From the IMG/VR virus record IMGVR_UViG_2547132252_000005, positions 1 through 18,599 of that record: a stretch of 18,599 bases of DNA. One strand, given 5' to 3'. The translations under genes and the position numbers were made by a program. This stretch comes from a virus. Lineage: Duplodnaviria; Heunggongvirae; Uroviricota; Caudoviricetes. Shown here one piece after another: positions 13,715 to 15,663 of this stretch (the first letter of the stretch is position 1; each line of letters opens with the position of its first letter). The notes beneath the pieces were generated by a model that saw nothing but the letters and a program-made list of their open reading frames with translations, searched no databases and had not been told where the DNA came from.

Positions 13715-15663
13715 ATGACATTTAAACATTATGATGTTGTCAGGGCGGCGTCGCCGTCAGACCTTGCTGATGCACTTGCGCAAAAAATTCGTGAAGGATG
13801 GCAACCATACGGTGGGCCGTTTTCTTCGTATACGGATGATGGCGCAGCACTTATTCAGGCGATTGTCGCAGAAGGTGATGTGAGCACACCTGTTGTGGTG
13901 AAGCTGACAGGTGGAGAAGGTGCAGTAATCAGCGCCACCAGAGACCCGGAGTATTACTTTATTGTGGTTCTGGCGGGGCAGTCAAACAGCATGGCATATG
14001 GTGAAGGCCTTCCGCTGCCGGAGACATATGACCGTCCGGACCCGCGTATTAAGCAGCTGGCGCGCCGCAGTACGGTGACACCGGGCGGTGTCGCCTGTAA
14101 ATATAACGACATCATTCCGGCGGACCATTGTCTGCATGATGTGCAGGACATGAGCCGCCTTAACCATCCGAAAGCGGACCTGTCAGAGGGGCAGTACGGA
14201 ACCGTGGGGCAGGGGCTGCATATCGCCAAAAAATTGCTGCCGTTTATACCGGCGAATGCGGGCATTCTGCTGGTTCCGTGCTGTCGTGGTGGTTCAGCGT
14301 TCACCACCGGAGCTGATGGCACATACAGTGACGCGAGTGGTGCTTCGGAGAATTCAACCCGCGTGGGGTGTGGACAAGCCGCTGTATAAGGACCTTATCG
14401 GTCGAACAAAAGCAGCACTGAAGAAGAACCCGAAAAATGTGCTGTTTGCCGTGGTGTGGATGCAGGGGGAATTTGATTTTGGCGGTACGCCGGCAAATCA
14501 CGCAGCACAGTTTGGTGCGCTGGTTGACAAATTCCGTGCAGACCTGGCGGATATGGCAGGTCAGTGCGTCGGTGGCTCTGCTGACGGTGTTCCCTGGATA
14601 TGCGGGGACACGACGTATTTCTGGAAGCAGAAGAACGAAGCCACCTACCAGACGGTGTACGGCAGCTACAAAAACAAAACGGAAAAAATATACCATTTCG
14701 TACCGTTCATGACGGATGAGAACGGGGTGAATGTGCCGACGAACAAACCGGAAGAAGACCCGGACATTCCGGGTATCGGATATTACGGTTCGAAATGGCG
14801 TGACAGCTCAGCCACCTGGACGTCACAGGACAGGGCGAGCCATTTCAGCGCCTGGGCACGCCGTGGGATTATTTCCGACCGTCTGGCAACGGCGATTTTG
14901 CGCCATGCGGGAAGAGTGGCGCTAAACGCGGGGGCATCATCGACAGTATCAGAGGTGCGCCCGTCAATCGCCTTCCGGTGCCAGAAGCCACAGGCGTCAC
15001 AACACTGCTCTCTTACCTTGCCAGCGAGTCAGAGGGAAGCCTGAAAGTCAGGGATGGTCAGCCAGTGGCGGCAGGGCAGAAGTGGTCAGCGATGCGGAGG
15101 GAACCGGAGGTAAGGCAGTGAAGCTGACCAAGGAAGCCGGTAAAAGCAGCTGGGTGCTGGAGTACGCCGCGGGCAACGGTGCGGCTCTGTTACAGAAAGG
15201 GGGGCAGATTCGCTGCCGCTTTAAGGTTTCGGGAGCGCTGGCTGCGAACCAGTATGTTATGGCGTTTTACTGGCCGGTATCTTCACTGCCACAGGGCGTT
15301 GCCCTGACCGGAGACGGGGGGAATAACCTGCTGGCAGCGTTCTACATCCAGACAGATGCAAAAGACCTGAATGTGATGTACCACAATGCGAAAGTGGCGA
15401 CAAACAACCTGAAACTGGGAAGCTTTGGCGCATTTGATAACGAATGGCATGCGCTGGCTTTCCGCTTTGCCGGGAATAACAGCCTTCAGGTGACGCCGGT
15501 TATTGATGGTCAGGATGGTACACCGTTCACGCTGACGCAGTCACCGGTCAGTGCCTTTGCGGCGGATAAACTGCATGTGACAGACATTACCAGAGGTGCG
15601 ACTTACCCGGTACTGATAGACAGCATTGCGGTGGAGGTGAACAGCACAGACACTGCGGCATGA
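13715..15663 (+). pseudogene. NanS-p-like sialate O-acetylesterase (DUF1737 + SGNH hydrolase + C-terminal domain), disrupted by at least three 1-bp frameshifts
   Basis: Total length (~649 codons) equals the intact ~645-aa Stx-phage esterase. The N-terminus and GQSN block (VVLAGQSNSMAYGEG) are in frame 2. Protein-like sequence switches to frame 0 near 14361, back to frame 2 near 14933 (G-run), and to frame 1 near 15090. The track therefore reports three partial ORFs. Confidence 0.6.

Follow-up and report, generated by a model that had tools for sequence, protein, structure and literature searches.

The nanS-p-type gene at positions 13715 to 15663 of the viral DNA analysed here (18,599 nucleotides in its whole length; hereafter the window) is broken in its deposited version by six 1-bp indels, and with a probability of about 0.85 we take these frame breaks to be errors of the consensus in a low-quality stretch of a draft scaffold and not mutations in the bacterium. 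Sequencing or assembly appears to be the most likely cause of the indels, judging from their privacy to one contig, the clean ORF underlying them, the gaps in the scaffold and the presence of other private indels. This reading is drawn from the consensus sequence and does not prove any single one of the indels to be an error.

The original prediction had described the gene as nanS-p-like, coding for a prophage sialate O-acetylesterase of about 645 aa, with the right total length and a preserved GQSN catalytic block, and in these respects it was borne out. The gene is composed of a DUF1737, a SASA esterase and a DUF6645 domain, its intact counterpart matches the structures PDB 6yp6 and 3pt5, and its 1949 bp are collinear with intact nanS-p-type genes of 1947 bp. 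The coding sequence of 13715-15663 is distributed across all three frames of the + strand, on which all features described in the following are located. The first ORF fragment (13715..14389, frame 2, 224 aa) comprises the N-terminal DUF1737 (PF08410, E = 1.9e-12, assigned by Pfam in the ORF at 13715-14386) and the N-terminal part of the SASA domain including the GQSN block, which reads '...VVLAGQSNSMAYGEG...' in translation, and it ends at a TAA stop codon arising from the +G frameshift at 14363. The frame-0 ORF (14256..15044, 262 aa) contributes the remaining SASA esterase domain within 14364-14965; it contains a stretch, '...SQDRASHFS...', which we take to be a putative C-terminal Asp/His block of SGNH hydrolases based on its resemblance. 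It is followed by a short frame-2 ORF (14978-15121) with the protein-like sequence 'EATGVTTLLSYLASESEGSLKV' and by the third ORF fragment (15082..15663, frame 1, 193 aa), which encodes the C-terminal lectin-like DUF6645 domain (Pfam PF20350, E = 5e-75, in the ORF at 15082-15660); the true coding sequence in frame 1 already begins at 15049, ahead of this fragment. The SASA/SGNH domain (PF03629) is divided between the first two ORFs, with profile positions 4-96 found in the first and 97-158 in the second.

Since Pfam places DUF1737 and the start of SASA, the continuation of SASA, and DUF6645 in ORFs 1, 2 and 3, respectively, the three pieces are, as judged from their predicted domains, collinear with one three-domain esterase; a lack of such collinearity had been named beforehand as one of the outcomes that would speak against the prediction. 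By every sequence criterion but ORF integrity the window gene belongs to the NanS-p family, with nothing new in the gene itself. The exception is the single uninterrupted ORF of about 630-650 codons looked for in a NanS-p gene, as translation from the ATG ends after 224 aa.

A 2.2-kb region around the gene was matched in 343 phage records and in 1,904 of the 5,426 complete E. coli genomes. The closest matches of this region are O157:H7 chromosomes (99.5-99.6% identity), and the window gene itself is 99.5-99.6% identical to intact 1947-bp genes in TW14359, E32511 and CEC08123. In O157:H7 the intact 1947-bp gene is a single ORF for WP_000142932.1 (648 aa), which is annotated as 'DUF6645 domain-containing protein' or 'SASA family carbohydrate esterase' and which matches PDB 6yp6 (the 'NanS-p' C-terminal domain) with E = 1e-139 and PDB 3pt5 (NanS/YjhS) with E = 1e-116.

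The lesions were placed by global alignment to three intact nanS-p genes, a check that had been proposed together with the original prediction. Whereas three indels had been claimed, six single-base indels separate the window gene from the intact copies in near-identical O157:H7 prophages. The first is an additional G at 14363 (CGC-TGGGG to CGCGTGGGG; codon 217), which shifts the frame from 2 to 0 and agrees with the first predicted shift at about 14361. A compensating pair follows, consisting of the loss of an A at 14683 (A7 to A6; codon 323) and the gain of an A at 14692 (TATCC to TATACC; codon 326); over 14683..14692 the pair converts AAAAAAATATCC into AAAAAATATACC, by which three codons (323-326) are scrambled and the frame is brought back to 0. 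The series is completed by an inserted A at 14966 (TCATCG to TCAATCG; codon 417; frame 0 to 1), an inserted C at 14981 (GTGCAG to GTGCCAG; codon 422; frame 1 to 2) and a deleted A at 15049 (GTACAGG to GTCAGG; codon 444; frame 2 to 1). The frame path across the gene thus runs from 2 to 0, to 2 (for 9 nt), to 0, to 1 (for 14 nt), to 2 and to 1, so that the predicted path (2 to 0 to 2 to 1) was right in using all three frames, but missed that the true path has six shifts. No difference from the intact genes is present in the G5 run at 14933, where the second shift had been located; the shift into frame 2 results from the insertions at 14966 and 14981. The third shift, expected at about 15090, actually lies at 15049, about 40 nt off. 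The claim that two of the shifts sit in G-runs had to be given up as well, since the G-runs are free of any indel; the G at 14363 is inserted between C and T, one base ahead of GGGG, and the only homopolymer-length change among the six sites is the one at 14683 (A7 to A6).

In addition to the indels, the gene contains four substitutions (14186, 14528, 14996 and 15636), with 14996G and 15636G representing natural alleles. In silico removal of the six indels restored a clean ORF of 648 codons, whose only stop is the terminal one and which differs from WP_000142932.1 by K158E and I427V, V427 being the commonest allele and also the residue in PDB 6yp6. A scan of the repaired ORF for nonsense or extra missense changes revealed none.

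The six indels were sought in the complete E. coli genomes (5,426), in phage records (50,697) and in IMG/VR, and none of them was found. When the region 14340-15070 was compared with the complete E. coli genomes, the best matches reached 99.0% (731 vs 729 nt; 2,543 places in 985 of the 5,426 genomes), and the same ceiling of 99.0% applied to the phage collection (302 records). The indels occur in 0 of the 66 other nanS-p alleles, as seen in an alignment of 65 IMG/VR alleles and the reference. Four k-mers spanning all six indels had 0 exact matches in IMG/VR, in which the intact k-mer at the first site (14363) was matched at least 120 times. Look-ups of the exact products in a collection of about 15 billion proteins, which covered two of the three ORF fragments, traced the 224-aa and the 193-aa product to a single contig. 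The recurrence in independent sequences of the lineage that a pseudogene should display was therefore not observed, the indels being confined to the source contig.

The indel sites are conserved across the 66 alleles apart from the A-run at 14683, which reads AAAAGAA in most copies. There, the A7 run of the window's nanS-p allele is rare, most paralogues having AAAAGAA, and in two IMG/VR alleles the run is one base shorter on a different background. The site may be prone either to genuine slippage or to repeated error.

The window is identical to part of scaffold GL896790.1 (4.80 Mb) of assembly GCA_000215165.1, a gapped draft. A 20-N scaffold gap begins exactly at the window end, just past the IS629 copy, and a 1,124-N gap is located on GL896790.1 3.7 kb beyond the window end. 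Because of its odd length and its end at an N-run, the window may be one whole contig, in which case an indel at window position 13, i.e. the loss of an A (CAAC to CAC) in the bet/recT gene, would lie at the contig end; this position was compared with one genome only, and the window k-mer was present in none of the loci fetched, with the reference version present in six.

Frame-breaking indels private to the scaffold were also found in other conserved genes. The terminase large-subunit gene on GL896790.1 is split into pieces of 475 aa and 132 aa by two -1 deletions, -C at 17764 (C4 to C3) and -G at 18358 (GG to G) in the coordinates of locus L004, which lie 3-3.5 kb past the window end and just before the 1,124-N gap; both are absent from the 530 complete genomes with this segment (best match 99.5%, 771 vs 773 nt). 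A further +G in a G3 run distinguishes GL896790.1 from TW14359. In ylcJ, a T7-to-T6 change is accompanied by an adjacent C/T substitution (window 6843/6847), and the resulting version was found in 0 of 1,405 complete genomes (best match 99.1%, 231 vs 232 nt). The gene is a clean 49-codon ORF in the window and is labelled 'frameshifted' by RefSeq in TW14359 and CEC08123; since none of the 1,405 complete genomes shares the window's version, the change is probably another consensus error, which by chance opened the frame. The source of the window is therefore, as would be expected for an artefact, a gapped draft with other private frame-breaking indels in conserved genes (ylcJ and terminase).

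The idea that all indels of the window are private was rejected, as four IMG/VR loci also have the +A at 13493, which represents a natural allele. Polymorphism likewise accounts for positions 903, 1061 and 6798, at each of which the window agrees with one or other reference. A patch of 90 bp with about 23 substitutions relative to TW14359 (L004 15164-15255, window-equivalent 18878-18969) is located right after the 20-N gap, at the start of a lysis (Rz-like) gene, and probably stems from another allele or from a join to a paralogous prophage.

The differences of the window that lack a match in any comparison sequence amount to 8 indels and 3 substitutions, including position 13, for which the comparison covered one genome. 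Six of these eight indels fall inside 690 bp of the 16.9 kb compared, which under a uniform distribution corresponds to a binomial P of about 1e-7, and in the region they are accompanied by only two private substitutions. For spontaneous mutation in E. coli, indels make up in the order of 10% of point changes; at this proportion an indel share as high as the one observed has a P of about 1e-6, and at 20% a P of 2e-4. Outside these sites, the comparable 16.9 kb are 99.9% identical to genomes with an intact gene. Neutral decay should leave more substitutions than indels and a divergence as in the flanks, which is not the spectrum we found (P about 1e-6 to 1e-7). Because the private differences are mostly indels and are strongly clustered, they point to a low-quality patch rather than to neutral decay.

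From this we propose that an ordinary nanS-p allele of E. coli O157:H7, carried by a lambdoid prophage without stx, came to lie in a low-quality consensus patch of an old, gapped, scaffold-level draft, in which six 1-bp indels would have spread the gene over three frames. The -A/+A pair, nine bases apart at the A7 run, would then represent one displaced base call, and the G inserted one base ahead of the G4 run would likewise be a displaced call; the pair and the +G resemble incomplete-extension or carry-forward phasing errors of flow-based sequencing. An artefact is favoured because the indels are confined to a single gapped draft scaffold, because their removal leaves an unblemished ORF, and because the same scaffold has other private frame-breaking indels. 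Between decay and sequencing error, both of which had been put forward originally, the private indels and the clean repaired ORF thus speak for error, whereas decay is disfavoured. Several points can be held against an artefact. In four of the six indels it is not the length of a homopolymer that changes, which sets them apart from textbook homopolymer errors. A consensus built from mixed paralogue reads, which we considered and rejected, does not account for the indels, since their sites are conserved in the 66 alleles except for the A-run at 14683. Finally, some phage records annotate the gene as split or as a pseudogene (phage 2851, Stx2a_WGPS8 and Stx1 phage AP005153).

An unlikely variant of this explanation is a mixed case, in which one of the indels is real (e.g. 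the A7-to-A6 change or the +G at 14363) and the rest are errors on top of it. Real mutations often arise by slippage at an A7 run, and the two IMG/VR alleles with a run shorter by 1 nt would fit such an event, if on a different background. However, the loss of the A at 14683 is exactly compensated by the A gained at 14692, nine bases on, which indicates one displaced call and not two mutations, and no one of the six indels is better supported than the others.

That the gene is a genuine pseudogene, i.e. a redundant nanS-p copy which was inactivated by the frameshift at 14363 and subsequently acquired five more real indels, we regard as quite unlikely. The deposited sequence does contain the frame breaks, other records contain nanS-p with a split or pseudogene annotation, and pseudogenisation is plausible in principle because nanS-p is present many times over in O157:H7; with matching places numbering 2 per genome in the median and 15 at maximum, losing one copy would cost little. 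However, multi-hit decay is implausible because the 99.9% identity of the surrounding 16.9 kb leaves too little divergence, or in other words, there was not time enough for 690 bp to gather six neutral indels in a prophage whose remainder shares 99.9% identity with genomes having an intact copy. Moreover, six indels against two private substitutions are the opposite of the known substitution excess, and a gene broken for long should show substitutions and stops in its original frame, none of which appear after removal of the indels. Intermediate stages occur in no relative, and the other private indels in conserved genes of the same scaffold are a further argument against decay.

All six indels could also be real if they arose in a localised frameshift burst within the 690-bp patch of one redundant nanS-p copy, for example by error-prone repair or from a recombination tract, with the prophage otherwise 99.9% identical to its relatives, which we consider very unlikely. 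Programmed recoding, by ribosomal frameshifting or transcriptional slippage at the shift sites, one of which is an A-run able to support slippage, has a negligible probability and was rejected, since it would need six shifts in both directions, none of which is conserved in any homologue (the 66 other alleles and the thousands of genomic copies are all without the six indels, and the annotated references are single ORFs), and since no recurrent arrangement of slippery heptamer and stimulator was found at the sites.

The surroundings of the gene are those of a lambdoid late region. The gene order is ybcN, ninE, ybcO, rusA, ylcG, Q, three tRNAs, esterase, DUF1378, DUF826, holin, lysozyme and IS629/IS1203. 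The late-gene antiterminator Q (12072..12506, PF06530) is located 5' of the esterase gene and separated from it by three phage tRNA genes (12951..13202; CAT, Ile according to RefSeq, Arg-TCG and Arg-TCT), and the late and lysis genes DUF1378, DUF826, class II holin and lysozyme (15800..17096) follow on its 3' side, so that the gene has the location of a NanS-p gene in a lambdoid late region, with Q upstream and lysis genes downstream. An stx operon is absent between Q, the tRNAs and the esterase gene (window 12506-13714), where the annotation of the relatives shows a DNA-methylase remnant, a partial hypothetical gene and nothing else. The window prophage is a stx-less relative of Stx-converting phages, and its arrangement is otherwise that of Stx phages. 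The lysozyme gene is followed by a copy of IS629/IS1203 (17297..18599), after which the window ends at the 20-N gap. Of the closest complete genomes, TW14359 and E32511 have no IS at this place, and CEC08123 has it inside the lysozyme gene; the junction could reflect an insertion specific to the strain or a join made in scaffolding.

NanS-p proteins are prophage-encoded Neu5,9Ac2 esterases, which let EHEC use the O-acetylated sialic acids of mucin (PMC8065619; PMC10462455). Copy number and integrity of nanS-p are used in discussing growth of EHEC on these sugars, and calling the window copy decaying based on a draft scaffold would therefore mislead. If the indels were real, the effect would be small, with one of several redundant esterase copies lost. 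The DUF1737 domain has been reported as a capsid-decoration module (2026 preprint, doi 10.64898/2026.04.10.717836), and real indels would also yield prophage particles without esterase decoration, because the frameshift parts the capsid-binding DUF1737 domain from the enzyme. With all six real, the gene would represent an unusually clustered multi-hit inactivation of a gene for mucin-sugar utilisation and capsid decoration.

Compared with known sialate O-acetylesterases, the window gene is related to the chromosomal NanS of E. coli (YjhS, PDB 3pt5) by a homologous SGNH/SASA core, corresponding to residues 74-396 of the intact protein; unlike NanS-p, chromosomal NanS has neither DUF1737 nor DUF6645 and is not prophage-borne. 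The closest known system are the NanS-p esterases of EHEC prophages, of which z1466 of phage 933W and vb_24B_21/gp84 of phage phi24B are named examples, WP_000142932.1 being the one relevant here, and for members of this family esterase activity has been reported (PMC8065619). NanS-p genes and the window gene share the same architecture of DUF1737, SASA and DUF6645 and occupy the same place, 3' of Q and the phage tRNAs and 5' of the holin and lysozyme genes, and the DNA of the window gene is 94-99.6% identical to hundreds of phage and prophage NanS-p copies. In contrast to these copies, the ORF of the window record is broken by six 1-bp indels, and in contrast to the NanS-p prophages with stx, the window prophage lacks an stx operon in the interval from the tRNAs to the esterase gene. 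The breaks themselves are like the frameshift artefacts of draft and early-generation assemblies, in that they are private indels of 1 bp, some of them in or beside homopolymers, on a gapped scaffold on which several conserved genes are hit (nanS-p, ylcJ and terminase), and in that the ORF is restored once the indels are removed. Unlike what a uniform draft error rate would produce, six indels in 690 bp are unusually dense, which suggests a local low-quality patch.
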